NCBI GenBank assembly: GCA_965222605.1
Contig: OZ244960.1
Location: 608,001 to 672,000 of the forward strand
Reading direction: 5' to 3'
DNA: 64,000 nucleotides
From: Candidatus Latescibacterota bacterium
GTDB lineage: Bacteria; Latescibacterota; UBA2968
The position numbers and the translations under genes are program-made. This document shows positions 995 through 45,645 of this stretch, piece after piece. The notes beneath the pieces were generated by a model. The model was not told the origin of the DNA. It saw only the letters and a program-made list of their open reading frames with translations, and ran no database searches. Positions within the stretch are counted from its first letter, which is position 1. Each line of letters starts with the position of its first letter.

Positions 995-1008
995 ACAAAA
1001 GGCTCCTT

Positions 1009-2991
1009 TCAATACGAATGGATCCGGTGCCCGCCTCCAGAAAACCAGATGGCGTCGACTCCGAACAGGAGCGTCACGCCCAGCGCCCAGCCCACCAGCA
1101 GCCCCACCACAAAAGGTCGAAACCGCCGGTAAAGCATCACGCCCCCAATTTTCATAATCATCGTCTTGACGCCCCAGGCCATAAATAGCGTCCACCCGAT
1201 CCGGTGCATCACGAACGTGGGCGAAAAGGCCAGTCCGATCGGATGGACGGGCCACCAGGGAAATCGATATCTCAGAAATGTCAGCAGGGCCATAAGCCCC
1301 GCCCCGAGGCCAAAAAACAGCAATCGCCGCCAGTCTGTGGAAAAAGGCGCCGTCATCGTATTCATCACGATGTAAAAAGGCCGCTGGCTACCCGCGGCGA
1401 AGACCCACTCATTGAAATTAAAGGCCCCGTAGGTGTATCCCAGGTAGAGCGTGTACCCGGTTGATGCAGCAATCCCGACCGCCAGCGCCAGCATGACCGC
1501 GCCCCCGATTCCTTTTCGGCGTTCTTTGGCTACGTCCGCCAGCCGGGCAGTATGGGCCAGTGCCGGCATGAACAGCCCCGCGCTCCGGGCAACCAGCACG
1601 TAGGTAAAAGCCAGCACTGTCAGCCCGGTTCTCGGCGCTTCGGCCGTACCCAGCAGATAGAGCGTCGCCGCCTGGGGCGTCATAGGCGCCCGGGCGTAAA
1701 GCAGCCCGGATTGCGCCACCATCTTGGCCAGACCGGTATAGATCGTAAACGCAAACAGGATGAGCGGAATGGCCAGCTTGTATTCCATCCCTGCGCAAGC
1801 AAGCCAGAAGACGAGAAAGCACAGACTTCCGGCCAGCCCGAACACCGCTGTCCTGTACGACACGATCTCCCCTGAATCATCCACCGGATAGGTGGTATCG
1901 AGGGCTTTTTTTACCACTTCCCGCAGGTGCTTGCGGGCGATAAACAGACCCCAGACAACCATAAAAAAAAAGGCCCCCCAGCTCTGCCAGCCCGTGATTG
2001 CGTCGTAGGAAGACCAGGGATCGAGAGAAGACCCGATCGTATATCCGATCCGGTTCAGTACGCCAGCCTGAACAATAAAAAACAGAAAAAAAAACCACAT
2101 ACTGAACAGCACTTCCAGGCTGGCAAAAAAAGAAAACGCGAACGTATAAAAACTGATATTGGTAGAAAACCATGGAAAACCGGTCGCAATCGTAAAATTC
2201 CGGGCCGCGAAAGGAAATTCGGGAGCGGCCGGCCAGAAATAGGACAGGATATTCCAGCAAACCATCCCAAATGGAATAGCCATCCCTATCCAGAATAGCT
2301 TCCCCCGCATGAACTCCGGCATCAGCTCTATGCCGCTGGATTTCTCGGATATATCGATCCCCACCTGGATCAGCGGGTAGTCCAGCTTTTCGTATTCCAC
2401 CCACTGCTTCCGCATCATCGCCCCAATACAGAGCGAGGCCAGTGCCACGGCTGCAATAAAGCAGAACCACCAGAACAGCGGCACGTACCACACCGACAGC
2501 GGGGCTGCCACATCCGGGGGCAGCCCCTCGAAAAACCACTTCAGCCCGTTGTCCCGGTCAACTGGTGCCATCCAGGAAGGGATATAATCGTGGAAATATT
2601 CGGCCCATCGGTTCTCTGGCGTCGCGTAATAATACGGCGAGGCCAGAATGCCCAAAAAAAATCCGATGAACCCCCAGGTGGGTACCACGCTCCCTACCAG
2701 GATCATCGCCAGAAGCGTCAATTTTTCAGCGGGACGGAGGGCCTGCTTCAGACCGACGGCGCACAGGAGGGAATCACAAAAAACGATTAGAAAAAAAACG
2801 ACAAACGCGGCTAAAGGGAACTGGCTCAGATTGATATGGGAGGAATGAACAATATAGTTGGTATATGTAACCCAGAGATTGATGATCACAACGCCTGCCA
2901 ATCCCAGACACAAACTGGAGGCCGACACATACCGGCTACGCCCTGGTCGGAATGCTTCCAAAGGGTAATGTGTCTCCGATAATGCCATCAA
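1009..2991 (-). CDS. DUF6785/DUF6784-type polytopic inner-membrane protein (putative transporter)
   Basis: 660 aa, many TM segments; PYYYATPENRW, RKQWVEYEKLDYPL, LRYRFPWWPVHPIG, KIGGVMLYRR; paralog at 42558-44534. Confidence 0.8.
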   Translation of the reverse strand: MMALSETHYPLEAFRPGRSRYVSASSLCLGLAGVVIINLWVTYTNYIVHSSHINLSQFPLAAFVVFFLIVFCDSLLCAVGLKQALRPAEKLTLLAMILVGSVVPTWGFIGFFLGILASPYYYATPENRWAEYFHDYIPSWMAPVDRDNGLKWFFEGLPPDVAAPLSVWYVPLFWWFCFIAAVALASLCIGAMMRKQWVEYEKLDYPLIQVGIDISEKSSGIELMPEFMRGKLFWIGMAIPFGMVCWNILSYFWPAAPEFPFAARNFTIATGFPWFSTNISFYTFAFSFFASLEVLFSMWFFFLFFIVQAGVLNRIGYTIGSSLDPWSSYDAITGWQSWGAFFFMVVWGLFIARKHLREVVKKALDTTYPVDDSGEIVSYRTAVFGLAGSLCFLVFWLACAGMEYKLAIPLILFAFTIYTGLAKMVAQSGLLYARAPMTPQAATLYLLGTAEAPRTGLTVLAFTYVLVARSAGLFMPALAHTARLADVAKERRKGIGGAVMLALAVGIAASTGYTLYLGYTYGAFNFNEWVFAAGSQRPFYIVMNTMTAPFSTDWRRLLFFGLGAGLMALLTFLRYRFPWWPVHPIGLAFSPTFVMHRIGWTLFMAWGVKTMIMKIGGVMLYRRFRPFVVGLLVGWALGVTLLFGVDAIWFSGGGHRIHSY

Positions 2992-3003
2992 TATCCCGGT
3001 AAA

Positions 3004-3984
3004 TTATGGCGTCTTCGCACAGCGAAATCCGATATCCATATGCTTCAAAGTGGGAAAAGCCCGCATTCGGTTTGTCGTACGCAAATTGCTCTGATAATCA
3101 ATCCAGGCGCCGCCTCTTAGCACGCGGGTGAGGCCTTCCGAAGGCCCTTTCGGATTTTGGGCCGCATGGATTTCATAGACGTTTTCATCGTACCAGTCCG
3201 CACACCATTCCCACACATTACCGAGCAAATCGTGAATCCCATAAACACTCACACCATCCGCATAACTTCCCACAGGTGCGGTAAATACATACCCATCAGC
3301 GGCTGGATCCGGATCCCGGGCATAATCCGCATGTCCCCGCCAGTTTAACCTCACCCCGTCAAACTTATCTCCCCACGGATAGATCCTGCCTTCGGTCCCC
3401 CGAGCGGCCTTCTCCCACTCTGCCTCAGTGGGCAGGCGCTTCCCGGCCCAGCGGCAGTACGCATCGGCATCAACCCAGGCCACACCCACCACCGGCTGCT
3501 CCAGCCCTTTAAACCGGGAATCTCCCCAATAAATCGGCGGAGGATATTCCAGGGCCTCCAGAAACGCTCGATACTGTCCATTCGTCACTTCATACCGGTC
3601 AATCCAGAATGCGTCCAGAACCACGGTATGCACCGGGCGCTCGTCCTCATCGCCGTCTTGAAATCCCATCGAAAATTTCCCGGCGGGAATCGGGACCATA
3701 TCCAGATCCAGGCGCCTCCGACTGTACCGGACAGAATCCTGAATCCGCACCGCAGACTTTGGCACCCACCCTTCGGTGCTGTCAGCGATCCGCACGTTCA
3801 ACCACCCCTCGACCGTTTCCAGGACCTTTACGCTGTCGCCCGGAGCCAGGCGGGCCTTAACGCGAAACCCCTGTCCGGGTCCTGACCGGACGTCCACACC
3901 AGAGGTCACTGTCCCGGACTGCACTTCTATCCCCCGCGCTGTTCCGAAACAGATCCCGATCAGAAAACAAATCAAGATACGCAT
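3004..3984 (-). CDS. Secreted SH3-domain + FGE-sulfatase (SUMF1/EgtB-like) domain protein
   Basis: Signal-like N-terminus; VRSGPG..GWV SH3b; RLPTEAEWEKAARG, GNVWEWCADWY, GFRCA; start estimated. Confidence 0.85.
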   Translation of the reverse strand: MRILICFLIGICFGTARGIEVQSGTVTSGVDVRSGPGQGFRVKARLAPGDSVKVLETVEGWLNVRIADSTEGWVPKSAVRIQDSVRYSRRRLDLDMVPIPAGKFSMGFQDGDEDERPVHTVVLDAFWIDRYEVTNGQYRAFLEALEYPPPIYWGDSRFKGLEQPVVGVAWVDADAYCRWAGKRLPTEAEWEKAARGTEGRIYPWGDKFDGVRLNWRGHADYARDPDPAADGYVFTAPVGSYADGVSVYGIHDLLGNVWEWCADWYDENVYEIHAAQNPKGPSEGLTRVLRGGAWIDYQSNLRTTNRMRAFPTLKHMDIGFRCAKTP

Positions 3985-3994
3985 ATCATCTGTT

Positions 3995-5446
3995 CTAAGG
4001 CTCCTCTGTTTCTCCCACATCCCCCGGCCTGATCACGCGATCCATCATTCCAGCACGGTCGTGAATCCTCATGGTCTCCGCCTGCCAGTTCGGATTATAA
4101 AGCTCTCCGAGCATCGTCGAGTGTACCAGTTCATGCACGCTATTCCCGCGCTTATCTACAAAAACAAACTTGTAATATCCGATCTGATCGTAAGACCAAA
4201 TCTCGTACGATTTTCCGGTGGAATGGTAATCATGGCGTTCCACATGATCGGGAGGACCGTATTTGATATAGACCCGGCCCCTGTCCGTATTCGACCCCTT
4301 ATGCCTGGGCAGGGCGGGAAAATTCGTATCGGCATAATGAATGCGCTTGAAATACTCTGCGGCAAATTCGTTTTCCGGCGTATTCGGCGTGGGATCCCGC
4401 TTCTTCCAGAACGCGAGAATAAACCGCACCTTTTCCTCCGGATCTAACCCGCGATATTCATCCAGTTCTTCGCCTTCAGCAATATACTGAATCTGATTGT
4501 AGTACCGTTCCAAAGACGCCTCATCCGTTGCCAGGGAGACCTCCTCCAGCCTCCAGATTTGAAACAGTCGCCTGCCTGTTACAATTTTTCCCGTACCATT
4601 ATCTTTCACCAGCACCTGCAAAACATAACGGTCTGGAGAAAGCCCTTGAATATCCAGTGAATCGCCCATCACGCAACTGGTGCCCGGCTTTCTGAACCGC
4701 TTGGAAGAATAACTTTTAACCTGGAATCCCGTGGTATCCAGAATGGTGTATGCCAGATCGAATGTCTTCGGAGCGTCCTGGATAGCCAGATTATAAATCT
4801 CGAAATACACGTGTAATGCAGATCGGTCCTGCAAAAAACGTCGGGTGATATTGGGCACCACCCGCTTTCCATTTTTCACGAATCGACCCGGCCTGTTGGC
4901 ATCTCCAATGTGGGAGGCCAACTGCAAATTGCTGATCGACAGCGTCTTTGCGCCAAAAGCAGGTACAACAATCTCGCCCCGATAAGCGCCTTCGGCACCG
5001 GAATGCGTATCGATCACCTCCACCGTCAATTGATATGAGCCCGGCAGCAAAAGAAAAGAAAACACATCCAGAATTGTGGTATTTCCCGTATCCTTTTCAC
5101 CGGAACTCAGATCCATACCTCGCCGCCAGACCTGATCAACCTGTGAACCTATCTTCGGGGCCGTTTCCCCGGAAGCCAGAGCCTGGATGCGAACCTGGTA
5201 ATCCGCCCGATACCGGTCTTCTTCCCGAACAAACGAAAAACCATTTAGGGACAGAAGCATATCCACCTCAACATAGGTCTTCTCCTCTGTTGCTCGAAAT
5301 GCTTCCCAATCCATCCTGAACCGGATTTGTCCACTGCTCGTCAGAAGGCGGTCCTGTCCGAGACCATCGGACACAGTGCTTTCCACTGGTCCGACCACCC
5401 CGCATAAGACGACCAGGCAAATAGATGCACACCATCTTGCCATCAT
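3995..5446 (-). CDS. GWxTD domain-containing protein
   Basis: FWKKRDPTPNTPENEF..YFKRIHYAD..GSNTDRGRVYIKYGPPD..YEIWSY. Confidence 0.85.
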   Translation of the reverse strand: MMARWCASICLVVLCGVVGPVESTVSDGLGQDRLLTSSGQIRFRMDWEAFRATEEKTYVEVDMLLSLNGFSFVREEDRYRADYQVRIQALASGETAPKIGSQVDQVWRRGMDLSSGEKDTGNTTILDVFSFLLLPGSYQLTVEVIDTHSGAEGAYRGEIVVPAFGAKTLSISNLQLASHIGDANRPGRFVKNGKRVVPNITRRFLQDRSALHVYFEIYNLAIQDAPKTFDLAYTILDTTGFQVKSYSSKRFRKPGTSCVMGDSLDIQGLSPDRYVLQVLVKDNGTGKIVTGRRLFQIWRLEEVSLATDEASLERYYNQIQYIAEGEELDEYRGLDPEEKVRFILAFWKKRDPTPNTPENEFAAEYFKRIHYADTNFPALPRHKGSNTDRGRVYIKYGPPDHVERHDYHSTGKSYEIWSYDQIGYYKFVFVDKRGNSVHELVHSTMLGELYNPNWQAETMRIHDRAGMMDRVIRPGDVGETEEP

Positions 5447-5471
5447 TGTCTTGACTCCCGGGTAAAACGCG

Positions 5472-5514
5472 AAAAAAAGCAAGCAACCACCAATGTGTTC
5501 ATCGGTGGTTGCTT
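5472..5514 (-). terminator. Intrinsic terminator after the PorV-like gene
   Basis: AAGCAACCACC / GGTGGTTGCTT stem followed on the minus strand by GC-T7. Confidence 0.7.
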
Positions 5515-5532
5515 AACAATAAATGTTGTCGC

Positions 5533-6471
5533 CTAAAAGGAGCCGCCGATCGTCAGTCTCAGCGGAGCATCAAAATGATTGCCAAAGTTGCTATATGCAA
5601 GATCCAGGGTAAACTTCCGACCCCCAAATTCCCGCTTGAGACCAACACCCAGGGAAAAATCCTCCAGGTCGTAATTCCACTTGTAACCGCCCCGCAAAGC
5701 AAGCGTATTGGCCAACCAGAGTTCTGCGCCCATATGCACCCGCGCCTCGAAATCTACGAAAAACACATTCTGGGCAGACACTGTCAAATAGGTCGGATCT
5801 CCCTTCTCACCCAGAACTTCCATCGCCCCGCCGATTGAGTAAACCACGGGCATAAACATTCGATCCAGAACCACTTTATTGTCCTTTCCAAAATTCTGCA
5901 AAGACATCGCGATTCGGGCCGACCTGAACCCCGTATAGAACATCGTACCCATATCGATGGAAAACGTCCTGTTTGTCCTGTCCGCCAATTCCTGTTGCAC
6001 AAACCGGATCTGTGCCCCGAAGGACATCTTGTTGGTCAGTTGAACCGCAAAGGACCCGCCCAGTGCCATATTGGAATTGTTAAAAATCTGACCTGTTCCG
6101 CCAGGTTGAAAGATCGTGGTTTCTTCAAATGCCGGAAGCTGAAGCGTCACGAGGCTCATTCCCCAGACCATATTACCCGTCTTATACGCAACCGCCCCGG
6201 AATAAAATTTCGAATCCACCAGCCAGCGGGTGTACGTAAACATATACTCCGCCCGCTTGATCCTGGTCAATCCCGCGGGATTCTGAAAAATCCCATTGAT
6301 ATCATCTGCAATCGCCGCATAAGCGTCGCCCATCGCCGCCGAACGCGTGGACTGGCCTACCTTGAGAAAAGTGAACCCGGCCGTGCCGACCTTCTTAAAT
6401 CCCGCATCGGCAGTTTCCGATAACAGAACCAGGACGGAGGCCATTACCCCTGTCAAAATCAAACGCACCAT
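5533..6471 (-). CDS. PorV/PorQ family outer-membrane barrel
   Basis: FTFLKVGQSTRSAAMGDAY..NPAGL; terminal F; paralog at 44664-45635. Confidence 0.85.
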   Translation of the reverse strand: MVRLILTGVMASVLVLLSETADAGFKKVGTAGFTFLKVGQSTRSAAMGDAYAAIADDINGIFQNPAGLTRIKRAEYMFTYTRWLVDSKFYSGAVAYKTGNMVWGMSLVTLQLPAFEETTIFQPGGTGQIFNNSNMALGGSFAVQLTNKMSFGAQIRFVQQELADRTNRTFSIDMGTMFYTGFRSARIAMSLQNFGKDNKVVLDRMFMPVVYSIGGAMEVLGEKGDPTYLTVSAQNVFFVDFEARVHMGAELWLANTLALRGGYKWNYDLEDFSLGVGLKREFGGRKFTLDLAYSNFGNHFDAPLRLTIGGSF

Positions 6472-6513
6472 GTTAAATTCCTCCTTGAAAAATAGAGCAG
6501 AACCAGGCTCCTC

Positions 6514-8889
6514 CTACCGGATCACCGCAAAAATCCCTTTGGCAATCTTTCCCTCCTGTCCCGGCACCAGCGACTCTACGATATAAAAATAATGTCCGCT
6601 GGAAACCTGCGTTGAAAAATTGTACGTCGCCTGGGTCCAGATCTGCTCACCGGCCGGCGCGTCGGTCGGCCTCCGGGGATGGTCGATCACACCCACCAGG
6701 TCTCCCGAAATCGAATAAATAGATATCTTGCACTTCCTTGGAATATTTACAAATCGGATCCGCTCACTACCGGCATATCGGTGAACATCGTCCGGAATAT
6801 AGGGGTTGGGGACCACCCGCACCGGCTCCAGCAGCGCATCCTTCTGATCAGTTGCAATCACAATGGGGCTGTCCGAAAGGTTCACCCGCTGCTCCGGTGC
6901 CGCCCCTCCGCTTTCCAGCCCCGTCTGAATCCGCTGCTGCTGTCCCGAATCCAGATCGCTCAGCGTGGAAATGCCGTTGGTCCATGTGCTATGGCCGGTA
7001 TCGTAGCTTCGCACCGAGTAGTAATACTCAAACCCGGGCACCGACTCGACATCGTGGTAGGTATAAATCCCCGGCTCGCTTGCTGATTCCCTTCCGGCGG
7101 AAACCCAGGTCGCGTTCGCATCGTATTCCGTGTTTGCGGGGTAGGGACCTCCCGCGGGAATATCCGCAATTTGGGTCCACGGACCGATATGTCTGAACTC
7201 AGCCCGATAGACCCGATATCCTTTCACATCCTGTGCGTCGGCACCCGTATAATCCGGATCTATGGCACTGTCCACTGCGTCGGACCATGAAATGGCCAGG
7301 TTGCCGTTCTCATCGCTGGCCACCTTGATGGCCACGTCCGGCGGTGGTTTCGGGAGCTTATACCCATTATCATAGGCGAATTGCGCCCGCTCCAGATGCT
7401 GCAACAGCGCCCGCTCCCCGTCGGCCAGGTGTGTCTTATCTCCCATTCTGGACCAGACGAATACGTCCATCGGGCCGCCACCTGGCCCGGCAAACTCCGC
7501 TCCACTGCCCGCCACAAACGCCACCACGATTTTGGCCTTATCCCCGGGCGCCAGATCGTATGGCCCATAGACCTGAGCGGTAGTCGCTTTTTGAAGCGTG
7601 GTCGGATTCTCCATAATGGCCGGTGTAGTTCCCTTCCCGATCAGTTCCATGTAAATCTCTTCGTCCGCGCTCTTCCCCGGAGCAGGCATGGTGAAGTCTG
7701 ATTGACTGGTGACTGGCCACCAGGTTGCGCTGACCGGCTGGTCTGCCACCTTGGGTGCCACGTAGATCTCGGCATCGTTCGTAAACGGAGGCATATAATC
7801 CAGCGGCGCAAATCCAATATACTGAAACGCCATCAACTGTCCTTCGATCAGAGCACCCCGGGATTGCACCCCCGAAGGGGCCTGATTCAGAAAAACGGGA
7901 CCGCCTGTATCATCGTCCGAGGTCGTGGGATCGTCTCCGTCGTACACATAGAAAATCTTCTTTCCCCTCAACCCGGGCAGACCGTCGAAATTGGACGCCT
8001 CGCTGTATTTGATCCAGTCGTCACCCATACCCGGCTGATGCCAGTACGCATGCCCGCCCACGCCGGCATTGAGCCAGGATCGTTGCGCTTCAGATACGTA
8101 CATATTATTGACAAAAGCAAAGTAGGCATTATTCAGCGTAACCGGCAATCCCCGGTCGGCGTCGGGCAGGCCGTCTCCGGTTGCATCCCCCGTGTTCTCA
8201 AACGCAATCTCCAGAATAAAGAAATCGTCGTAATCGGGGTAGCTCCACGCCTTCGCCCGCCGCGTCACCGTGATACCTCGTTCGGTCGTCCACTGAGAAA
8301 TCACGATCTCCTCGGCCTCCGTACTGACCGGTATATACCGCCCGTACTCGTAATTGTGGATCTCCGTCAGGTCCGCCACAATCGCAGGCGCGCCCGGCCA
8401 GTAATTGGCCTTTAACGCGCCGGTCATGTGCGAAGTGGCCTGGATACCCAGATCCCGCTCGGGACCTTTGGAAGGATCGTATATCATCTCGGCAATATCG
8501 TCCGTGTTCACCCACGGGTTAGACCCGGAGACATTGAACTCCATCCCCTCTCTGGTCATAATCCAGATCCCTTCTCCACGGCCGCAGTTGTAGAGAAACT
8601 CTGGCTCGGTGTAGGACTGGATGACCTGTCTGGGGTCCGACCCCCAGTACTCTTCAAAATCCCGGCTCGAAACCCGGAACCCCGGGTACATCAGATCCAC
8701 CTCGTCTCCGAAGTAGGTGTCCTGGCGATATCCCTGGGTTCCCGTCTTGCGAAATGTACTCCAGAGTTGGCCTCGCGTCAGGCTTCTCTGCACCTCCGGC
8801 TGCTGGGCCAAAACGGCATCCCATCCGCCCGGGCCGATCAAGACGACGGCTACGATGAGGCACCATAGGCTTGTCTTGATGTTGCTCAT
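6514..8889 (-). CDS. Large secreted protein with FN3-like region and T9SS/FlgD-Ig-like C-terminal domain
   Basis: Signal peptide; GYRVYR..YYYSVRSYD; VRVVPNPY..IYSISGDLV..SGHYFYIVES..FAVIR; paralog at 45646-48021. Confidence 0.7.
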   Translation of the reverse strand: MSNIKTSLWCLIVAVVLIGPGGWDAVLAQQPEVQRSLTRGQLWSTFRKTGTQGYRQDTYFGDEVDLMYPGFRVSSRDFEEYWGSDPRQVIQSYTEPEFLYNCGRGEGIWIMTREGMEFNVSGSNPWVNTDDIAEMIYDPSKGPERDLGIQATSHMTGALKANYWPGAPAIVADLTEIHNYEYGRYIPVSTEAEEIVISQWTTERGITVTRRAKAWSYPDYDDFFILEIAFENTGDATGDGLPDADRGLPVTLNNAYFAFVNNMYVSEAQRSWLNAGVGGHAYWHQPGMGDDWIKYSEASNFDGLPGLRGKKIFYVYDGDDPTTSDDDTGGPVFLNQAPSGVQSRGALIEGQLMAFQYIGFAPLDYMPPFTNDAEIYVAPKVADQPVSATWWPVTSQSDFTMPAPGKSADEEIYMELIGKGTTPAIMENPTTLQKATTAQVYGPYDLAPGDKAKIVVAFVAGSGAEFAGPGGGPMDVFVWSRMGDKTHLADGERALLQHLERAQFAYDNGYKLPKPPPDVAIKVASDENGNLAISWSDAVDSAIDPDYTGADAQDVKGYRVYRAEFRHIGPWTQIADIPAGGPYPANTEYDANATWVSAGRESASEPGIYTYHDVESVPGFEYYYSVRSYDTGHSTWTNGISTLSDLDSGQQQRIQTGLESGGAAPEQRVNLSDSPIVIATDQKDALLEPVRVVPNPYIPDDVHRYAGSERIRFVNIPRKCKISIYSISGDLVGVIDHPRRPTDAPAGEQIWTQATYNFSTQVSSGHYFYIVESLVPGQEGKIAKGIFAVIR

Positions 8890-8937
8890 AAAGCACCCTC
8901 CTTCAAATCATTTCGTGGCGATTACATCGCCTCGATA

Positions 8938-11900
8938 TTAGAACATAATCTGGAACCCTGCCTCGATCTGCCTGGGGAACCCGACCCACCGGGTATTTTC
9001 TTGGGGATCGCCGAACGTCCTATAATTTGCATTCGTCGGCGCCGGCAGAATCAGGCCATAGCGGTACCAGCTATTTCTGTTGCTCCTGGAAAGGGCCCTG
9101 ACGTCCCGCTGGTTAAACAGGTTCGTCATATTCAGGAGAAAACTCGCCCTGAGTTTGTCGTTAACCCGAAACTGCTTTTCAAAGGCCAGATCGGTCATCG
9201 TTTGCATCGGCGCAAATTTATTCTCGGCTGCCTGCCCGGGCAACTGCACGGACACCGACTCGCCAGACTTGATCCGGTAGATCAGGTTGACCCGGATATC
9301 GCCCAGAATCGTCCCATAGGTCGGCGGCGTCTGATACACAAAACTCACCTTGCCGAAACTCTGTCGGCTCGACCCCTCGCCGATTTCCCCTCCGGTTGTG
9401 ATCGTTCGCCCTGCGGGAATCCGGTTCGGCCGGTTGAAAGACCAGAGTCCGGGAACGCCATAGACCGGAATCAACGGTTCGTCGGTAAGCGGATCCCAGT
9501 CTAAAGCCGTTCCGGCCCGCACCGACTGGATCATTGCATCGGCGGCCGCACTCAACACCTGAACTTCTTCGGACGTCAGCGGAACCGGCACTTCGTTTCC
9601 GGTGTTGGTGTCCCGGGTGAAAGTCAGCCAGTAATCCCCGTTGGCAATAAAACTTCCGTCGGGAATATAAAAGGTGCGCTGCTCGGCAAGCTGCCCCCGG
9701 GTGTGCCACTGCTGGTTGAAGGAGATTTGAAAGGAAAGGTTGTCGCTGAACGCCTTCCGCAGGGACAGTTCGAACCCCTTCGTATCCTCAAACGCGTTGT
9801 TCAGCGCTGTCCGGCTCGTCCGGATAAATCCCCGCTTCTGCGGATCCCACCAGTACGGATTCCAGTTGCCTACATAATCCGTTCCACTCCTGTAATACGT
9901 AGTCACACTGGCCGTATAATCGCGGTAGAAATTCCAGTCCGTCCCCACTTCCCACTCTATGGTGGACTCAAAGCCCAGGTCGGTGCTGGAAGATGATCCC
10001 CGCTGCACAAGCTGGTTGTAAAGTTCGGTGTCGTCAATCCGGCCATTGCCGTTGAAGTCCGCCGAGGATTTTCCGCCCCAGAACGAGTTGACATAGACCC
10101 GGTAGAGCGAAGGCATCTGGGCGAACACCCCATAGGAGAAGTGAATCGCGGCATCGGCTGTAATCGGATGGGATACCCCGATCCGCGGACTCCACTTCTG
10201 GTGGGGTTTGGTCTTTACCCTGGGCGCGTAAAGCTGGTGCCGCCGGTACGAGTTGGCCATCGGCGCCACCATCCAGAGTCCGGTAGATACGGCCACCGGC
10301 TCGAAGTTGTGATCCCAGCGATCGTAGCGAAGGCCGACGTTGACGATCATTCCCTCAAACTCCATCTTGTCCTGAAGGTACACCGATGTCATAATCGGGT
10401 TGATCGGTTCCCCGATCTCATCCGGCTGGCTCACGGTCTCCAGACGGGGACTCCCGTTGGATCGGACCTGTAGCCAGGTCCACCAGAGGCTGTGGTAAGA
10501 CATCTCAACTCCGGTCTTGACCAGGTGGCCTTTCGTCACCTGACTGGTCAGGTCGAACTTGATGCCATACCGTTGCCGGTTGTCCGCCTCATAGGAAGTC
10601 TGCCGGTTGAAATCCACGGTAAACCAACCGTCTGCGTCCAGGCTTACTCTCTCTGCGGGAATGCCTTCCAGAGGGCTATTCTGATCCGTAGGCACATCGG
10701 TGGTATCCCTCGCATCCCGAAACCAGGACAGCCGGAACTCATAAAACGTCTTGGGACTCAACGTGTGGGTCAAAGAGAGATAGGATAGATCGTTCTTAAA
10801 AAGATTCTTACCTGCGCCGCTCTGACCCTCCGGCAAAAAGATGTTCCGCGTGTGATTTCGCTGTGTTCCCAGAAAAGTCTGGTGGCGCTCGTAGATACCC
10901 CCCAGTTTCACCTTCATATTGTCCCGCGCATCCCACGCCAGCTTGTAGGATCCCTGGAAATTTCCCGGAGAGGAAAACCAGTTGGTCTGTGAGACTGGAT
11001 TTTCAAAAAATCCTCGCATCTCGGCTCGTGGTGTTGGTGAGACCAGCCCCTGATATTTTCCGGAAACGAAGAAGGAAGCGATTCCCCCGATCGGTCCGGA
11101 TCCGGTCCCTTCGGCCCAGTGCCCATGCACACCCGTATAATCGTACCGCTCGTGGACCTTTCGCCCATTGGTATCCACTTCGTTTTCCCAGGTCGGATCG
11201 CCCCACTTCATTTTACCCTGATGCACGGCGCTATCAAAGAGATTGTTTCCCCAGTGCTTCTTCCTAGGAGCCGTCCACCTGTACTCCGCTTTTCCGTGAA
11301 AATCCTTGCCCCCCTCCTTTGTGATCACATTCACGACACCGCCGATGGCATTCCCATATTCGGCCGCCATACCGCCCGTAATCACCGTCACCTCCTGCAC
11401 CGCCCCGGCATTGATCCCGGTAAACGGCAGTTGGTGCCGCAATTCAGAGGCCTCCATCGGAACGCCGTCCAGCATAATCACCACATCGGACGTGCCCGTC
11501 CGGAGGTGCCCCCGGTTCCCGGAGTAACTGCCCCGCAGCGTCGGCAGGCCGTCCAGGCCAGCCCCCGCCTGAAGGGCGACAATATCCGAGATTTCCCGGA
11601 TGCTGGAAAGCTGCTCAATATCCTCCGCGGTCACCACATACTGGCTCGTGGTCTTGTCCGGCTCGATCGGTGGGCGCTTGGCCACCACCGTCAACTCAGC
11701 CAGTTCAACCGTGGTCTCCTTCAGCGTAAAGTTCAGCGTTCTTGTAAAATCTGCCGCAACCGAAACCCCGGTCTGGGTCTGATTGGCATACCCCACCAGC
11801 GAAGCTACCATAGTATAACGCCCGGGAGAAACCGACAGGATCAGATAGACACCTTCCGCATCTGTAGTGCCCCCCAGTCGTATTCCCTCGAGCACCACGT

Positions 11901-12048
11901 TAGCCCCGGGCAGGGGATTGCCCTGCTCATCACTGACCCTGCCCGTAAGTTTCCCCGTGGTGCCCCCGAACGCCCCCCCTGCTGCCAAAGCGACAACCAA
12001 CACACCAAGCAGGAGGCTGGCCTTCCTCACAAACAGGCGATTGTCCAT
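8938..12048 (-). CDS. TonB-dependent receptor with N-terminal carboxypeptidase-regulatory-like domain
   Basis: GKLTGRV..PLPGANV; plug ITGGMAAEYGNAIGGVVNVITKEG; YLQDKMEFEGMIVNVGLRYD; SPRIGVSHPIT; terminal F. Confidence 0.9.
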   Translation of the reverse strand: MDNRLFVRKASLLLGVLVVALAAGGAFGGTTGKLTGRVSDEQGNPLPGANVVLEGIRLGGTTDAEGVYLILSVSPGRYTMVASLVGYANQTQTGVSVAADFTRTLNFTLKETTVELAELTVVAKRPPIEPDKTTSQYVVTAEDIEQLSSIREISDIVALQAGAGLDGLPTLRGSYSGNRGHLRTGTSDVVIMLDGVPMEASELRHQLPFTGINAGAVQEVTVITGGMAAEYGNAIGGVVNVITKEGGKDFHGKAEYRWTAPRKKHWGNNLFDSAVHQGKMKWGDPTWENEVDTNGRKVHERYDYTGVHGHWAEGTGSGPIGGIASFFVSGKYQGLVSPTPRAEMRGFFENPVSQTNWFSSPGNFQGSYKLAWDARDNMKVKLGGIYERHQTFLGTQRNHTRNIFLPEGQSGAGKNLFKNDLSYLSLTHTLSPKTFYEFRLSWFRDARDTTDVPTDQNSPLEGIPAERVSLDADGWFTVDFNRQTSYEADNRQRYGIKFDLTSQVTKGHLVKTGVEMSYHSLWWTWLQVRSNGSPRLETVSQPDEIGEPINPIMTSVYLQDKMEFEGMIVNVGLRYDRWDHNFEPVAVSTGLWMVAPMANSYRRHQLYAPRVKTKPHQKWSPRIGVSHPITADAAIHFSYGVFAQMPSLYRVYVNSFWGGKSSADFNGNGRIDDTELYNQLVQRGSSSSTDLGFESTIEWEVGTDWNFYRDYTASVTTYYRSGTDYVGNWNPYWWDPQKRGFIRTSRTALNNAFEDTKGFELSLRKAFSDNLSFQISFNQQWHTRGQLAEQRTFYIPDGSFIANGDYWLTFTRDTNTGNEVPVPLTSEEVQVLSAAADAMIQSVRAGTALDWDPLTDEPLIPVYGVPGLWSFNRPNRIPAGRTITTGGEIGEGSSRQSFGKVSFVYQTPPTYGTILGDIRVNLIYRIKSGESVSVQLPGQAAENKFAPMQTMTDLAFEKQFRVNDKLRASFLLNMTNLFNQRDVRALSRSNRNSWYRYGLILPAPTNANYRTFGDPQENTRWVGFPRQIEAGFQIMF

Positions 12049-12075
12049 AACAATACCCCCTTGCTGAAATAGAGA

Positions 12076-12792
12076 TTATTCGCCGGAAATATAAAACTTC
12101 AGTCCTGCGCCCACATCGAGTAAATGGAAGAAACTCGTTTTCTGGATGCCCCACACGGCAAAGGGACGAAGTTCTCCCAACACAAAATTGTAGCGTACCC
12201 GCAGATCCAGCGCGGCTCGTTCACTAAAAAAGAACAGCGTTCCACCCCCCACATTGATGCTGAGTGCCGTCCGCGTATCTTCGACCGGTTCCAGCAGGAT
12301 CGCCGGGTCAGGCGGCGCTCCTGGACTCGACGGTTTCTGCTCCGGATAGATCAGCCCGCTAACCTTGTTGGCATAATCGTAAAATCCGGTCCCGAATGTG
12401 ATGTAGGGCGCCCCTCCCTGGCCAAACCCGTTTTGCTTCAAAGCCAACAGCCAGTTGACTGATATACTGTTGAAGGTCATGTCCGAGCTGGCCTGTGGAC
12501 TTCTGTGATCCTTCCCATCAGCAAACCTGAAGGTCCGCTCCTCCAAACTCCCGTCGGAAAATTTGGCGTAGTGGTACTCCACCTCCATCAGCTTGCGAGG
12601 GCTGAGCATGTGGTGGACTGACACGCCAAACTTGCCGGTATCTGTGTACATATCCCGGAACTTGAAGAAGGGCCTGTAGAGAGAGCCAAACACACCGCCC
12701 CCCCAGTTTCCAGACAGGTCGGCGGCCTTTGCAGCTGAAGCCGATAACCAGACCGACAGAAATATCAAGCCAATGACTTTGATATATCTCAT
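12076..12792 (-). CDS. Small outer-membrane beta-barrel protein
   Basis: Signal peptide, alternating beta strands, PYITFGTGFY, GAGLKFY; paralog at 51166-51858. Confidence 0.75.
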   Translation of the reverse strand: MRYIKVIGLIFLSVWLSASAAKAADLSGNWGGGVFGSLYRPFFKFRDMYTDTGKFGVSVHHMLSPRKLMEVEYHYAKFSDGSLEERTFRFADGKDHRSPQASSDMTFNSISVNWLLALKQNGFGQGGAPYITFGTGFYDYANKVSGLIYPEQKPSSPGAPPDPAILLEPVEDTRTALSINVGGGTLFFFSERAALDLRVRYNFVLGELRPFAVWGIQKTSFFHLLDVGAGLKFYISGE

Positions 12793-13034: not shown

Positions 13035-13040
13035 GTATGG

Positions 13041-13124: not shown

Positions 13125-13526
13125 AGGCCCTTATTCTTTCAGAATCTCCAGCCAGTCGGCACGCAGATGGTTTCTGAGTTCGCGGTAGTATTCTGGGCCT
13201 CTGCCCTTCCCCCGCCTGCCTTCCACTTCTTGTTTTCATCGCCTCCAAATCGTCTTCCGTGGCGCGTTTAATCACCAGATCAACCATTGGATATTGTCAA
13301 ACAAAAGCATTCTTTCATGTATTTATTAGAATGATTTATGGTCAAATCAAATATATATTCGCTTTTTTCTCTGTCAAGTGTTTTCTGCCATTTGCCGGCG
13401 CAAAGAGAGCAATCCTGCAAAGCCTACCTTTTAACCTAGATCGGGCTCGACCAGGCAGAATCGCTCTGCGCCTTTCCACAGCACCCGCTCTCTGATCCTC
13501 TGCCCTCTGCTGCCTTCAGCCGCACG

Positions 13527-25034: not shown

Positions 25035-25087
25035 TTGACAAACTATCTCGTTATGTTATATTTGAAAATATTATGATAAATATAACA
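25035..25087 (+). promoter_or_regulatory. hsdM promoter with putative operator
   Basis: TTGACA-N16-TATATT (TGn extended -10); inverted repeat TGTTATATTT-N14-AAATATAACA across the -10 and ATG. Confidence 0.6.
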
Positions 25088-26908
25088 AATATACACAACA
25101 TTTCTGCTGTTTTGCGTGCCATCCGTGCCCATCTTGACCTGACACAGGAAGAACTCGCGGATCGCCTCGGCGTTGCCTTCGCCACCGTCAACCGCTGGGA
25201 AGGCGGCGTAACTAAGCCTCAGAAGGCAGCGCGAGAGGCAATCGCCGCACTCGCGGCCGATGCGGGAATCGACATTGCGGAAGTTACCGCAGAACCAGTC
25301 GAAGCAGCAGCACAAGTGACAAGACGACGGCGCGTTTCAAAAGCTCCTTCCACGAAGACTATGGAACAAATGCTGTGGGACGCAGCCTGCTCCATCCGAG
25401 GCGAAAAAGATGCGGCCAAGTTCAAAGATTATTTGCTCCCGCTCTTGTTCCTCAAACGCCTGTCCGATGTCTTCGACGATGAAATCGAGCGTCTTGCAGA
25501 GGAATATGGCGATCAAGAGACTGCCCTGGAAATTGCCGAGCTTGACCACGGACTATTGCGCTTTTATATCCCACCTGAGGCGCGATGGGCTGTCATAAAT
25601 GGACGCGAGAGTCATAATTGGCCTGATGACCAGGGGCGAAGTACGCGCCCGAAGGACATTGGCGAGCACCTGACCAAAGCAGTTCGCGCCATCGTACGGC
25701 ATAACCCCTCGCTCTCCGGCGTCATAGACCTTGAGGATTTCGCTGCCGAGCGCAATGGTGAGCGCGATATCAATCCCGCGAAACTCACCGAGGTCGTTGA
25801 GACCTTCTCCGATCCGCGCTACCGCCTGGGACTTGCCGACGTGCAACCCGATTTTCTCGGACGCGCCTACGAGTTCCTCCTGCGGAAATTTGCCGAAGGC
25901 TCTGGCCAAAGCGCGGGTGAATTTTTCACCCCAACCGAAGTCGGCCTTCTAATGGCCCACATCATGCGTCCAAGACCCGGCGAGGAATGCCACGACTATG
26001 CTTGCGGTTCGGCTGGTCTTCTCGTAAAACTCCAACTCATCGCTCGCGAACTCGATCCCATTAGTCGCGTGCCTCTCAAGCTCTATGGACAGGAACTACA
26101 GGCCGAAAGCTATGCGGTCGCCAAAATGAATGCTACCATCCACGACATGGAAACTGAAATTGAGCGCGGCGATACGATGATCAATCCGAAGTTCAAAACC
26201 GCAGACAGCAAAATCCGCACTTATGACATCGCGGTCGCTAATCCTATGTGGAATCAGCCATTCAATCCGGACATCTTCGCCGACGATCCCTTCGACCGCT
26301 TCCGTACCCAGGGCGGCGTCACCACAGGCAAAGGCGACTGGGCATGGCTTCAGCACACCCTCACCTGCTTGAACGAACGTGGACGTGCGGCTGTGGTGCT
26401 CGACACCGGCGCAGTAACGCGCGGCTCAGGAGCCAAACACGAAGACCGGGAACGCAACATCCGCAATTGGTTCGTCGAACACGATCTGATTGACGGCGTG
26501 ATCCTCCTCCCAGACAATCTGTTCTACAACACCAGTGCCGCTGGCGTAATCATCGTTCTCTCAAAGCGCAAACCCGCCGCACGGCAGAACAAAATCGTCC
26601 TCCTCAACGCCAGCCAGCGCGTGCGTAAGGGCCGTCCCAAAAACTATATCCCGGAAGAAGATCTACGCCCACTCGCAGCGGCCTACCTCAAGGGCGAACC
26701 TGTCGAGGGTGAGATCGCGGTCATCACGCGGAAGCAAGCAGAGGAAGCAGACTATAACCTCAGCCCGAGCCGATGGGTGGGGCAGACAGATATAGCGGTT
26801 CAGCGTCCGATAAAGGAGATTGTTGCTGAAATGCAGCGTCTTGATGATGAAGCCCGCGAGGTGGATGCGCGCTTGTTAGATATGTTGGCACAATTGCAAG
26901 AGAAATGA
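25073..26908 (+). CDS. hsdM: Type I R-M methyltransferase with N-terminal XRE HTH
   Basis: [24 protein letters not shown]; [10 protein letters not shown]; GEFFTP; DYACGSAG; NPMW; LFYNT. Confidence 0.92.
26540..26778 (+). repeat. Direct repeat copy 1 (hsdM 3' region)
   Basis: Near-identical to 27299-27533. Confidence 0.9.
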
Positions 26909-27308: not shown

Positions 27309-27684
27309 TCATCGTCCTCTCAAAGCGCAAACCCGCCGCACGGCAGAACAAAATCGTCCTCCTCAACGCCAGCGCGTGCGTAAGGGCCGACCAAAAAACT
27401 ATATCCCGGAAGAAGACCTGCGCCCACTCGCAGCAGCCTATCTCAAAGGCGAACCAGTCGAGGGTGAGATCGCAGTCATAACGCGGGAGCAAGCAGAGGA
27501 AGCAGACTATAACCTCAGCCCAAGCCGATGGGTTTTAGGAATAGAGAACAATGAAGTATCTTCAGTCAAGGAATTAATTGATCAACTCGCCACGCTATCA
27601 AAAGAGCAATTCGAGCATGATGAAAAACTATTTGCACTCTTGAAGCCACTAACTGATGGAACGCTCAATGTCGCTACTGACTGA
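27299..27684 (+). pseudogene. Second hsdM 3' fragment with a different C-terminal tail
   Basis: 235-bp repeat of 26540-26778 with a 4-bp deletion, then a divergent tail overlapping the hsdS start. Confidence 0.8.
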
Positions 27685-28915
27685 ATGGGGCCAGTGTCGC
27701 TTAAGTGAGGTAACTATTCCGGCAACGAAATGGAATCCTCGCCTCAATCTCCGTCCTTCAATCCGTTATATCGATGTTTCGGCTGTCTCTCGGGATGAAC
27801 TCAGGATCGTCTCTGAGACAACATACTCATCAAAGGATGCCCCAAGCCGGGCTCGCAAAATCGTAAAGACTGGAGATACAATCTTCGCAACGATCCGCCC
27901 CACTCTGCGACGAATTGCACAGATACCGTCGTCTCTGGATGGTGAAATTGTCTCCACAGCCTTTTGTGTCCTTCGACCCGATCCTCAGGTGATTGACGCG
28001 GATTTTCTCTACTTCGCTACACAGCTTGAGTACGTGATAAAGGGTATTGCTGGCATGGAGTCAGGCGCAAGCTATCCGGCGGTGAGGGATGTTGACGTTC
28101 TCGATCAAGTAATTTCACTTCCTCCTTTGCTTGAGCAACGGGAAATTGCCACAGTTCTCAACACCATACGCACTGCTTTGCTTCATCAAACCAAATGTGA
28201 AGAGAACGCAACCGCTCTCAAACGCGCTACGATGCAAGAGGTATTCACTCAGGGCCTGCGGGGCGAAGCGCAGAAGGAAACCGAAATCGGTCCGGTACCG
28301 GAGAGTTGGAACTTGTCAACGCTGGGAACACTTTGCGAAAACACTAATCCTGTTGATATCCGATCCGAGGCTGACCGGGTGATTGAGTATGTAGATGTCT
28401 CCTCCATCTCCCGCGATTATATGTGCATAGAAAATACGTCCCGATTCATACTCAGAGAAGCTCCCGGTCGTGCTAGAAAACGCATTTTGACTGGCGACGT
28501 TATATTTGCGACTGTGCGACCCACGCTCCTGCGTGTTGCCGTTATCCCCGAGGAACTGGACAATCAGGTTTGCTCCACTGCGTTCTGTGTCTTGCGCCGG
28601 GACAGCAAGATGAGCATCCACAATTTCATCTACTACGTCGTGCAACGGGACCAGTTTATCCAGCAACTCGCCGAGATTGAAACTGGTGCTAGTTACCCGG
28701 CTGTAACAGATCGGATAGTCAAGGAACAGATAGTTCCGGTGCCGAGCCTAGATGAACAGTGCGAAATCGTCGCCATCCTCAACACCATTGACCGCAAGAT
28801 TGACCTGCACCGAAGGAAACGCGCAGTGCTTGACGACCTGTTCAAAGCACTGCTGCACAAGCTGATGACGGGTGAGATTCGCGTAGGTGATCTTGCCCTG
28901 ACGAATAATGAGTGA
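27656..28915 (+). CDS. hsdS: Type I R-M specificity subunit
   Basis: Two TRDs, [10 protein letters not shown] and [34 protein letters not shown]. Confidence 0.93.
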
Positions 28916-31377: not shown

Positions 31378-32781
31378 ATGGCCATGACCCTTGATGAAAT
31401 CTCAACGTTGGCCCAAACCGGTGAATCCGAAACGCTGGAGTTCAAGCGCACGACGGGAACTCGGCGGGAAGCGGCCAGAACCATTTGTGCCATGCTCAAC
31501 CAGCGCGGCGGACAGGTATTGTTCGGTGTGACATCAGAAGGAAATGTGGTTGGGCAACAGGTGAGCGAACGTACCATCGAGGGGTTGAGTGCCGAACTTC
31601 AGAGAATAGATCCCCCGGCGTTTCCAACGGTTGAGCGAGTACCCACAGCGGAAGGTCGCGAGGTGCTTGTGGTTCGCGTAAGTCAAGGGACAGCGCGACC
31701 TTATGCGTACCGCGGCACCGCCTATCGTCGGGTTGGAAATACCACTGTAGCGATGTCGGCTGACGAGTACAACCAAATGCTCTTCGAGCGTATGCACAGC
31801 GAGCAGCGCTGGGAAAATCAACCCGCTACTGGATGGACGGTAGATGATCTGGATGTGGGAGAAATTCGACGCACAGTGGCAGAGGCAGTTCGACGAGGCC
31901 GACTGGAGGAGCCTCTGAGTCGGGAGCCAGCGGATCTCTTGCGCGGACTTGGACTTTTGCGTGACGGTGTGTTGTTCCGAGCAGCGGTGGTGTTGTTCGG
32001 CAAAGCCGAGCGCATCGAGTTCGATATGCCGCAGTGTCTGCTTCGCGTAGCCCGTTTCCGCGGTCTCGACAAGATGGCGTTCCTGGACAATCGCCAGTTC
32101 AATGGCAACGCTTTCGCACTGCTCGCCAGCGCAGAACGTTTCCTGCGCGACACCTTGCCAATCGCCGGTCGGTTCGAGCCGGGCCGCTTTGAGCGTATAG
32201 ACGAACCACTCTATCCGCCTTTAGCCACGCGCGAAGCACTGGCAAACGCGCTGTGCCATCGCGACTATTCGATTGGCGGTGGCTCAGTAGGGGTGGCGAT
32301 CTACGACGACCGCCTGGAGGTGACATCCTCTGGCTCACTCCACTTCGGGTTGACCCCAGAGAAACTGTTTGCACCACACGAATCGCGGCCCTGGAATCCA
32401 CTAATCGCTGGTACTTTCTACCGTCGTGGCGTCATTGAAAGGTGGGGAAGTGGGACCCTCAAGATCGCGGAGCATGTGAGTGCAGCGGGTCTTCCGCCCC
32501 CTGAGATAGAGGATGACGGAGGGTGTGTCACTGTGCGCTTCCGACACGGCCAATTCGTACCGCAACAGCCCACCGGAAGAGGAACAGTCGAACGGCAAGA
32601 GGCCATTTTTGCTCTTCTGGAACGTGCGGAGGACGGTCTGATGCGCGGCGAGATTCGCGCGCAGTTGGATCCTGCTATCAGTGAGCGTCAACTACGAAGG
32701 GCACTGGAAGAATTGAGAGAAAAAGGGTTGGTCGTGTCCACGGGTCGCGGACTGTCCGCACGCTGGAAACGCAAGGTATAG
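31378..32781 (+). CDS. Schlafen/AlbA_2 + HATPase_c_4 (RecG-C-like) + wHTH protein
   Basis: ESETLEFK, CAMLNQRGG..FGV, REALANALCHRDY, ERWGSG, C-terminal HTH. Confidence 0.88.
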   Translation: MAMTLDEISTLAQTGESETLEFKRTTGTRREAARTICAMLNQRGGQVLFGVTSEGNVVGQQVSERTIEGLSAELQRIDPPAFPTVERVPTAEGREVLVVRVSQGTARPYAYRGTAYRRVGNTTVAMSADEYNQMLFERMHSEQRWENQPATGWTVDDLDVGEIRRTVAEAVRRGRLEEPLSREPADLLRGLGLLRDGVLFRAAVVLFGKAERIEFDMPQCLLRVARFRGLDKMAFLDNRQFNGNAFALLASAERFLRDTLPIAGRFEPGRFERIDEPLYPPLATREALANALCHRDYSIGGGSVGVAIYDDRLEVTSSGSLHFGLTPEKLFAPHESRPWNPLIAGTFYRRGVIERWGSGTLKIAEHVSAAGLPPPEIEDDGGCVTVRFRHGQFVPQQPTGRGTVERQEAIFALLERAEDGLMRGEIRAQLDPAISERQLRRALEELREKGLVVSTGRGLSARWKRKV

Positions 32782-42535: not shown

Positions 42536-42557
42536 AGAGAAATTCTCCGTTTGGCCA

Positions 42558-44534: not shown

Positions 44535-44663
44535 CGCAATCTCTCAAAAACTTAGAAGTGCCCACTCGCAGAATTTCCCGCGCAATGTACCTCAAAAAGA
44601 AAGTGTGTGCAAGGAATCCATCCCCTGCACACACCTGGATTAGCGATCAATCACAGACAGCTA

Positions 44664-45635: not shown

Positions 45636-45645
45636 GTCACGCTCC

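Follow-up and report, generated by a model that had tools for sequence, protein, structure and literature searches.

Two copies of one gene set, both on the (−) strand, lie at 1009-12792 and 40775-51858 of the window analyzed here, a stretch of 64,000 nucleotides (nt) from a Candidatus Latescibacterota bacterium (positions 608,001 to 672,000 of contig OZ244960.1; coordinates without a locus label count from the first nucleotide of the window). Each copy begins with four genes for outer membrane (OM) or secreted proteins, which encode, in order, a small OM β-barrel protein (OMP1 and OMP2), a TonB-dependent receptor (TBDR1 and TBDR2), a secreted protein of about 790 amino acids (aa) that we call BIG (BIG1 and BIG2), and an OM barrel of the PorV/PorQ family (Table 1). 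With modest confidence we favor the reading that this module is a self-contained OM unit for nutrient capture and import, SusC/SusD-like in function and built from other parts. For glycan uptake through a TonB-dependent receptor and a surface partner, nearly all that is known comes from the SusC/SusD systems of the Bacteroidota, and the module would be a second solution with different components.

Module 1 comprises seven consecutive genes, in which the OM quartet is followed by genes for a GWxTD-domain protein, a protein with SH3 and FGE-sulfatase domains, and a membrane protein with DUF6785 and DUF6784 domains; in module 2 the last of these and then a sodium:solute symporter (SSF) gene come directly after the same first four genes. 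The initial annotation, made from the window alone, had noted the identical four-gene order, and its coordinates for the two loci match exactly, with every gene on the (−) strand. The short motifs it quoted from the partners (GLIYPxQK, PPxEPDKTTS, HWGxxxxxS, LTRGQLW, WSYxxxDDFFILE, and ELWxANTLALRGGYK) are all present in alignments between the modules. By BLASTP the PorV-like barrels of the two modules are 47% identical (E = 3e-94), the DUF6785 proteins 39% (E = 7e-161), BIG1 and BIG2 36% (E = 2e-148), TBDR1 and TBDR2 36% (E = 0.0), and OMP1 and OMP2 34% (E = 3e-39). The shared order of the two loci is not a matter of chance, since the genome has it 28 times and, of 80 related loci in other genomes, 76 have it too.

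A survey of the 6.34 Mb source genome (tblastn with a crude call of open reading frames, ORFs) found 28 TBDR-BIG-PorV triads, each on one strand and all in this order. Twenty-two are preceded by a small barrel gene, and the six others are shorter modules without it and with more distant BIGs. Every BIG homolog of the genome (28/28) lies inside such a triad with a PorV-family gene next downstream, and 28 of the 34 places in the genome that score above the PorV-family cut-off are in modules. At about 7.5 kb each, the 28 copies occupy about 3% of the 6.3 Mb, transporters excluded. One triad (at about 577.6 kb), alone among the 28, is interrupted, by an IS4/IS5-type transposase ORF between the BIG and PorV-like genes (L085:6786-7586).

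The survey of gene neighborhoods proposed earlier likewise showed the synteny to be conserved under several phylum labels. Among 80 foreign loci from species-representative genomes, many of them from close relatives and hence not independent, the 76 with the triad include 71 that have the small barrel as well; of the other four, three are truncated where the contig or locus ends, and one (L082) has 9 kb of downstream DNA without a PorV-like gene. Most of these loci are labeled Latescibacterota, and others carry the labels Gemmatimonadota, KSB1, Marinimicrobia/Neomarinimicrobiota/Fidelibacterota, or a few odd ones. In the window's own phylum 69 of the 101 sampled genomes, including 19 of 19 from the same genus, have a match, with scoring limited to about ten per genome. 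In a second phylum-level group, for which a Rubrivirga-named relative served as query, 39 of 81 genomes match at E ≤ 1e-15; the triad is present in seven of the seven loci fetched, without the small barrel and with a far diverged BIG (tblastn 60-84 bits). Gene content around the triad varies, since one Marinimicrobia-labeled locus is arranged differently: OMP, a 328-aa protein whose tail is canonical type A, TBDR, BIG, PorV-like, SSF, one ceramidase-like gene, and a second BIG. Outside the source genome the BIG family has 213 matches in a 90%-clustered database, and in a 50%-clustered library 639 clusters match at E ≤ 1e-30, 3509 at 1e-10, and 8537 at 0.001, the weaker of which probably match the Fn3 domain or the tail only. 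Those among the listed matches that carry a source name are called "hypothetical protein" or, twice, "T9SS type A sorting domain-containing protein", neither of which gives a function.

The partners have also diverged together. Identity matrices of the four proteins from the 22 full modules correlate with r of 0.80-0.88, which none of 2000 permutations reaches. When the 5 near-identical pairs among 231 are removed, the Spearman coefficient is 0.655 for BIG-PorV, the tightest pair, and 0.551 for TBDR-BIG, and neither value is reached in 1000 permutations. Judged from the sequences, this co-divergence reflects duplication en bloc; it is compatible with contacts between cognate partners and does not prove them.

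The core transcription unit seems to consist of the four OM genes, because the gaps between them are short (27, 48, and 42 nt in module 1; 99, 3, and 10 nt in module 2) and a terminator-like hairpin follows the PorV-like gene. Such an element is found no farther than 130 nt from the PorV-like stop codon in 18 of the 28 modules; among 200 random genes, 44 have one. Upstream of OMP1 a gap of 734 nt contains a match to a σ70-like promoter (Table 1), but promoter-like sites are not enriched in the region (12, against a shuffle mean of 8.5). No Rfam family was found in the window. Contigs assembled from the metatranscriptomes of four studies extend over all of 900-13600 or parts of it; carry-over of DNA is possible, so that these contigs prove neither transcription nor operon structure nor termination at the hairpin, and bins without coverage carry no meaning. 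Summed contig depth, which cannot rank expression, is highest in the bin 5140-5563 (20.6 in RNA set X5 and 14.1 in X6, mostly below 8 elsewhere); this bin takes in the hairpin behind the PorV-like gene and the beginning of the GWxTD gene.

Both TBDRs have a carboxypeptidase-regulatory-like N-terminal domain and a plug that exceeds the PF07715 cut-off of 23.9 bits (Table 1), followed by about 800 residues in which no Pfam model of a TBDR barrel matches at E ≤ 0.01. A TonB-box-like ELTVVA, read by eye, appears to precede the plug. Against the SusC/RagA family model (TIGR04056) the two score only 78.6 and 91 bits, with a cut-off of 368.25, and only over the N-terminal part. TBDR1 as a single sequence has no match among PDB sequences, and a profile of the family matches the FepA plug (E = 1.7e-17) and, over query residues 9-491, the SusC homolog 8aa4_A (E = 1.2e-15). 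By sequence the module TBDR and SusC are distantly related, because the family profile aligns to the latter. No SusD family was found in the 41 window ORFs that were scanned, and in the whole genome PF07980, the sole model searched there, gives one 33-bit match, which is interrupted by an internal TAG stop; the earlier description of a fixed OM module lacking SusD thus stands. Since both a SusC-family TBDR and a SusD lipoprotein were looked for and neither was found, the module is not a member of the SusC/SusD group. The small barrel family matches PF13505 in 18 of 25 members, and its only match to PDB sequences is at chance level.

BIG1 has a signal peptide (about residues 1-28), a galactose-mutarotase-like β-supersandwich (about 31-510), an Fn3 domain (about 515-640), a linker, and a C-terminal β-sandwich (about 686-791). 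Read by eye, its N-terminus is a Sec signal peptide without a lipobox. The signal-peptidase sites predicted by eye in BIG1 (VLA|QQ, 8806-8889), OMP2 (VSA|QE, 51790-51858), and the PorV-like protein of module 2 (AFA|QS, 45540-45635) would all leave an N-terminal glutamine, which is reminiscent of the "Bacteroidetes Q-rule". An AlphaFold2 (AF2) model built on 51 homologs has pLDDT 87.8 and pTM 0.89. The best structural matches of the supersandwich (VIA) are the N-terminal domains of a bacterial glucoamylase (1lf6_A; Z 18.6, root-mean-square deviation 2.8 over 231 residues) and of a glycoside hydrolase (GH) family 94 phosphorylase (2cqs_A; Z 18.4), and Foldseek is concordant. Its fold is that of the sugar-facing N-terminal domains of GH15, GH94, GH65, and GH116 enzymes (Z 17-18.6); aldose epimerases match at Z 11-13.

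These matches also bear on the possibility, unlikely in our view, that BIG is a surface enzyme (a new β-sandwich depolymerase, epimerase, or lyase) which would be SusG-like rather than SusD-like and tethered just as in the reading we favor. Among the 51 aligned members, even the most distant, R39, Y185, E193, Q384, Y444, W215, Y217, D221, D222, E227, and E231 are invariant or nearly so, and such polar and aromatic residues would agree with one shared chemistry or one shared contact. Some supersandwich proteins, the aldose epimerases among them, are themselves catalytic, and BIG also matches the chains of enzymes that act on sulfated or acidic glycans, in a domain that may or may not be the catalytic one, namely the GH174 endo-fucanase 9k1g_B (Z 13.8), the alginate lyase 3a0o_A (Z 12.0), and the dermatan-sulfate epimerase 6hzn_A (Z 11.3). 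The best matches, however, are non-catalytic domains, and the catalytic (α/α)6 domain of those enzymes is absent from the BIG1 model. BIG matches no enzyme family in Pfam, NCBIfam, or PDB sequences (the best PDB match, at E = 0.089, is an Fn3 domain), and its conserved residues could equally be a metal site or a contact with the receptor.

The initial annotation took the tail of BIG for a C-terminal domain (CTD) of type A, a cargo signal for the T9SS (type IX secretion system), held by a cognate PorV. That the tail is a T9SS-type β-sandwich is probable: Foldseek aligns the modeled tail with PorZ (5m11; E = 3.1e-4, 126 columns, 21% identity) and also with PorU (6za2). Its assignment to type A is not clear. 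At E ≤ 0.1 PorZ matches 29 of 51 aligned members (best E = 6.2e-9), CHU_C, which we take to be the Pfam model of the type-B signal, matches 28, and the type-A models match 15 (TIGR04183 of NCBIfam) or 8 (PF18962 of Pfam). Genome-wide, TIGR04183 finds 14 ordinary type-A CTD proteins above its cut-off and four BIG paralogs only below it. From models and sequence together the tail is probably a T9SS-type signal domain and not a clear type-A one, because its matches are divided among PorZ, CHU_C, and type-A models and Foldseek points to PorZ and PorU.

The other half of that claim, the PorV identity of the adjoining barrel, is borne out at the level of the family, since both module barrels pass the PorV/PorQ cut-off of NF033709 by a wide margin (Table 1). 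The module 1 barrel scores higher with the PorQ equivalog (74.9 bits) than with the PorV equivalog (58.7 bits), both below their cut-offs; the family profile matches the solved Flavobacterium johnsoniae PorV (6h3i_F; E = 3.2e-18); and no PorP/SprF model matches the module barrels at E ≤ 0.01. According to PMC10947112, the barrel PorQ holds PorZ on the Porphyromonas gingivalis surface, neither PorZ nor PorU has its CTD cleaved, and PorQ-PorZ assembles without PorU or PorV; its authors suggest there that PorQ can replace PorV at the translocon and collect its own substrate. A review (PMC10202324) proposes that "cognate PorV-like barrels" shield CTDs from cleavage, PorP/SprF with type-B cargo included. 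Because the BIG CTD is not clearly of type A, we regard the PorQ-PorZ pair, in which PorQ holds its partner by a CTD that is not cleaved, as a better precedent, by analogy, than PorV with type-A cargo.

The PorQ-PorZ and PorV-PorU pairs resemble the module in that a PorV/PorQ-family barrel is paired with a secreted protein, and the C-terminal sandwich of BIG is like the CTDs of PorZ and PorU. They differ in that one pair per cell serves there to attach cargo to anionic lipopolysaccharide (A-LPS), whereas here there are 28 pairs, each with its own TBDR. The passenger differs too, a GalM-like supersandwich in BIG and β-propellers in PorZ, and the tether to the barrel is in BIG a putative one. 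In the type-B systems SprB-SprF of Flavobacterium and PG1035-PorP of P. gingivalis the cargo gene, as reported in PMC10947112, likewise adjoins the gene of its secreting and anchoring barrel, and the weak CHU_C matches of BIG recall type-B cargo; in contrast to the module, their barrels are PorP/SprF rather than PorV/PorQ proteins and they include no TBDR.

It is rather improbable that the genes are merely linked, with BIG an ordinary T9SS cargo (released, or fixed to lipopolysaccharide by a PorU-like sortase) and the barrel a FadL-like channel in its own right that passes a small or hydrophobic product beside the TBDR. Matches of the module 1 barrel to FadL/TodX at 23.7 bits and to UPF0164 at 26.7 bits, both weak, would agree with such a channel, all cargo could be served by the PorV candidate outside the modules and the PorU-like gene of the genome, and some loci have one barrel for two BIGs. 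The barrel, however, scores far higher with the PorV/PorQ family than with FadL, its gene is the next one after BIG in all 28 triads (with the transposase ORF between them in one), BIG and barrel are the most tightly co-diverging pair, and the BIG tail is like the uncleaved CTDs of PorZ and PorU.

The DUF6785 protein was proposed earlier as the inner membrane importer of the module, and this can be kept in part. The gene lies downstream in both modules, and the AF2 model of the DUF6785 and DUF6784 domains is an all-helical transporter (pLDDT 83, pTM 0.86) that Foldseek superposes over nearly its full length on barley Yellow Stripe 1 of the OPT family (7wst_A; E = 1.9e-7, probability 1.00, TM 0.55/0.59). 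It has no other clear match in the PDB (E = 1.6e-2 for the best unrelated chain thereafter), and alignment identity is 13%. Because the model has this OPT/Yellow-Stripe fold, a role as inner membrane importer is plausible. The protein differs from OPT transporters (7wst, 7wsr) in its low identity, in that PF20581 and PF20580 alone match and PF03169 (OPT) does not at E ≤ 0.01, and in a context of sugar catabolism rather than of peptides or metal chelates. There is no match among PDB sequences; feature-similarity scores of 0.77-0.79 to "peptide transporter" and OPT clusters amount to no more than a lead; and no paper on "DUF6785" was found in the open literature. The assignment as a fixed module part does not hold: at least 11 of the 28 modules have the gene no more than three genes downstream, it lies behind the hairpin, and SSF is an alternative. 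With 52 DUF6785 genes among about 5220 called ORFs, this proximity is far above chance by our arithmetic. Downstream of the foreign modules DUF6785 occurs in 57 of 80 loci, SSF in 21, and either in 64, and in other lineages an SSF symporter joins or replaces DUF6785, which is a frequent but optional and separable neighbor. One PorV-family gene adjoins a DUF6785 gene with no TBDR or BIG (G000:C1:225438-228347).

From the gene sets, their conservation, and the folds and families just described we infer a secretion route, tethering and receptor contact of BIG, a substrate class, and some part for the small barrel. BIG would be exported by Sec and cross the OM through a T9SS-type translocon (SprA). 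Its C-terminal sandwich would then be retained and bound to the adjoining PorV/PorQ-type barrel, as PorZ is on PorQ in P. gingivalis, and BIG is therefore proposed to be a non-lipidated, barrel-tethered surface protein. The supersandwich, raised on the Fn3 spacer, would bind and possibly cut a glycan beside the TBDR, which would import the product; the OPT-fold DUF6785 protein and an SSF symporter, singly or together, would carry it across the inner membrane. The divergence among the many copies would provide for different substrate specificities.

As to the T9SS background of this scheme, PMC11285876 allows for T9SS components in other phyla of the FCB group. The search for core genes that the initial annotation had in mind found SprA above its cut-off (492 + 134 bits, in a 2086-aa frame) and a 1900-aa PorU-like gene below it (237 + 72 bits, cut-off 420). 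A separate PorV candidate (G000:C1:1504701-1505669), the sole one with a full-length alignment to the PorV equivalog (155 bits, cut-off 250), may serve general T9SS secretion.

Several observations weigh against the uptake complex that we favor. GldK (TIGR03525), searched with no positive control, finds in the source genome only partial FGE-domain matches of up to 102 bits, with a cut-off of 350. GldM (TIGR03517) and GldL (TIGR03513) have no match there, and these two models matched in no genome, 14 controls included, so that their silence is not evidence of absence; GldM, again with no positive control, has no match in two sets of five further module-bearing genomes, nor in 41 genomes of another phylum. 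True absence of GldK, GldL, and GldM would cast doubt on export by a classical T9SS. BIG1 itself matches no CTD model, and the matches of its family are weak and split between PorZ, type B, and type A. The conserved BIG residues fit one shared chemistry or contact better than 28 distinct binding sites, and they leave room for an enzymatic role. Co-divergence and synteny follow from en-bloc duplication alone. Barrel and BIG do not always occur one to one, since Marinimicrobia-labeled loci have two BIGs and an extra type-A CTD gene with one barrel, and an OPT fold such as that of DUF6785 would be as fit for peptides as for sugars.

The missing matches to GldL and GldM in the source genome, and to GldM in ten other module-bearing genomes (with models that matched nowhere), together with the distance of the TBDR from characterized importers, would also agree with a function other than uptake, namely a surface structure (adhesin or coat) or, in lineages without the GldLM motor, a TonB-energized device for display or secretion in which the TBDR-like barrel serves BIG, but this is very unlikely, as the plug is normal and the TBDR aligns to a SusC homolog through about residue 491, the modules stand among catabolic enzymes with secondary importers downstream in most foreign loci, and we know of no TonB-dependent exporter.

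As an uptake system, the module is like SusC/SusD (RagA/RagB) in that a TBDR with a carboxypeptidase-regulatory-like N-terminal domain and plug is encoded next to a surface-exposed partner (putatively so here), and in its many diverged copies per genome, its place among glycan-catabolic genes, and its inner membrane transporters downstream. It is unlike them in the partner, which is a non-lipidated protein of supersandwich, Fn3, and CTD instead of a SusD-fold lipoprotein; in two added barrels, the PorV/PorQ-type one and the small OMP; in the low score of its TBDR with the SusC family; and in its hosts, genomes labeled Latescibacterota, Marinimicrobia/Fidelibacterota, KSB1, and Gemmatimonadota rather than those with the classical polysaccharide utilization loci of Bacteroidota. 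By analogy it would join the SusC/SusD-like outline with the principle of barrel and uncleaved CTD known from housekeeping parts of the T9SS. No description of a TBDR-BIG-PorV module was found in the open literature. We suggest tentatively, at somewhat below even chances, that a SusD-independent complex is the main glycan-import architecture of several FCB lineages that are little studied, namely Latescibacterota, Marinimicrobia/Fidelibacterota, KSB1, and metagenome-assembled genomes labeled Gemmatimonadota, its capture partner being a soluble-type protein exported in a T9SS-like manner and held by its own PorQ-like barrel rather than by a lipid. The spread of the module over several uncultured phyla is relevant to carbon turnover in marine, sediment, and host-associated settings. 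Working roles are hereby proposed for three unannotated families (BIG, DUF6785/DUF6784, and the dedicated PorV-family barrels), and the 28 natural pairs of cognate barrel and CTD offer material for the study of CTD recognition by PorV-type barrels.

Table 1. Positions of the module genes, putative signals, and other features in the window
Feature	Position	Strand	Evidence or remark
OMP1, small OM β-barrel, 238 aa, signal peptide; first gene of module 1	12076..12792	-	PF13505 OMP_b-brl 26.8 bits (cut-off 28.7); TIGR04565 35.9 bits (cut-off 60)
TBDR1, 1036 aa; carboxypeptidase-regulatory-like N-terminal domain, plug, long barrel	8938..12048	-	CarboxypepD_reg 70.3 bits; Plug 39.1 bits
BIG1, secreted protein, 791 aa	6514..8889	-	No Pfam or NCBIfam family; AF2 model and structural matches
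PorV/PorQ-family OM barrel of module 1, 312 aa	5533..6471	-	NF033709 159.2 bits (cut-off 90)
Terminator-like hairpin (16 pairs, then T-run), right after PorV-like stop codon, module 1	5480..5515	-	
GWxTD-domain protein	3995..5482	-	TIGR04514 106 bits; PF20094 42 bits; start codon uncertain (listed TTG start overlaps hairpin)
SH3 + FGE-sulfatase-domain protein, sulfatase-maturing-enzyme-like	3004..4020	-	PF03781 229.8 bits; SH3_3 45.7 bits
DUF6785 + DUF6784 polytopic membrane protein of module 1, 660 aa	1009..2991	-	PF20581 365.6 bits; PF20580 66.9 bits
Putative σ70-like promoter, TTGACA-16-TATATT, upstream of OMP1	13350..13377	-	11/12 match; consensus match only
OMP2, small OM barrel of 230 aa, the first gene of module 2	51166..51858	-	PF13505 28.8 bits
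TBDR2, 1008 aa	48040..51066	-	CarbopepD_reg_2 69 bits; Plug 30.3 bits
BIG2, paralog of BIG1, 796 aa	45646..48036	-	Weak CHU_C (E = 0.0043) and PorZ (E = 0.007) matches, residues ~695-782
PorV/PorQ-family barrel of module 2, 323 aa	44664..45635	-	NF033709 144.8 bits
Terminator-like hairpin (16 pairs, then T-run), between PorV-like gene and DUF6785, module 2	44601..44636	-	
DUF6785 + DUF6784 putative transporter of module 2, 658 aa	42558..44534	-	PF20581 377.5 bits
Sodium:solute symporter (SSF)	40775..42604	-	PF00474 132.8 bits; TIGR00813 153.7 bits; overlaps end of DUF6785 gene
HsdM, type I restriction-modification	25073..26908		
HsdS, type I restriction-modification	27656..28915		
AAA_15/AAA_21 ATPase, island	28989..30743		
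Schlafen/AlbA_2, island	31378..32781		
HsdR, type I restriction-modification	32962..35907		
AAA_22 ATPase, island			
DDE transposase, island	37743..38528		

The genes near the modules point to sulfated or otherwise decorated sugars as candidate substrates. The flanks of the other 26 modules were scanned in 68 of their 134 ORFs of at least 150 aa, and the genes around the modules include those for sulfatases, an FGE-type enzyme, arylsulfotransferase-like proteins, GFO/IDH/MocA and other sugar oxidoreductases, and GH4, as well as PhyH-type dioxygenases, BNR and β-helix proteins, a 3-keto-disaccharide hydrolase, and UxuA. A 1981-aa ORF right after one module (L091:13572-19517) has PcRGLX-like (rhamnogalacturonan-lyase-like) and sulfatase domains and may encode a giant enzyme that degrades sulfated glycans. 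Six of the 68 flank ORFs are transposase or integrase genes.

Genes of the PhyH type (phytanoyl-CoA dioxygenase-like) are frequent, with four in the window (13527-15287, 17000-18739, 38944-39690, and 57260-58147) and seven among the 68 flank ORFs (L084, L086, L088, L090, and L094); two of them, of about 580 aa, have an N-terminal part of about 290 aa that belongs to no known family. There are 36 GWxTD-domain genes in the genome, that of module 1 included, and many adjoin modules on either strand; no paper naming a "GWxTD" domain was found in the open literature. Between the two modules of the window lies an island of defense and mobile-element genes (25073-38528), with a type I restriction-modification system, several ATPases, and a transposase (Table 1). 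Upstream of module 2, among sugar-catabolic genes, the ORF at 54110-55156 matches the WelO5 family (carrier-independent Fe/2OG halogenase-like) with 67 bits.

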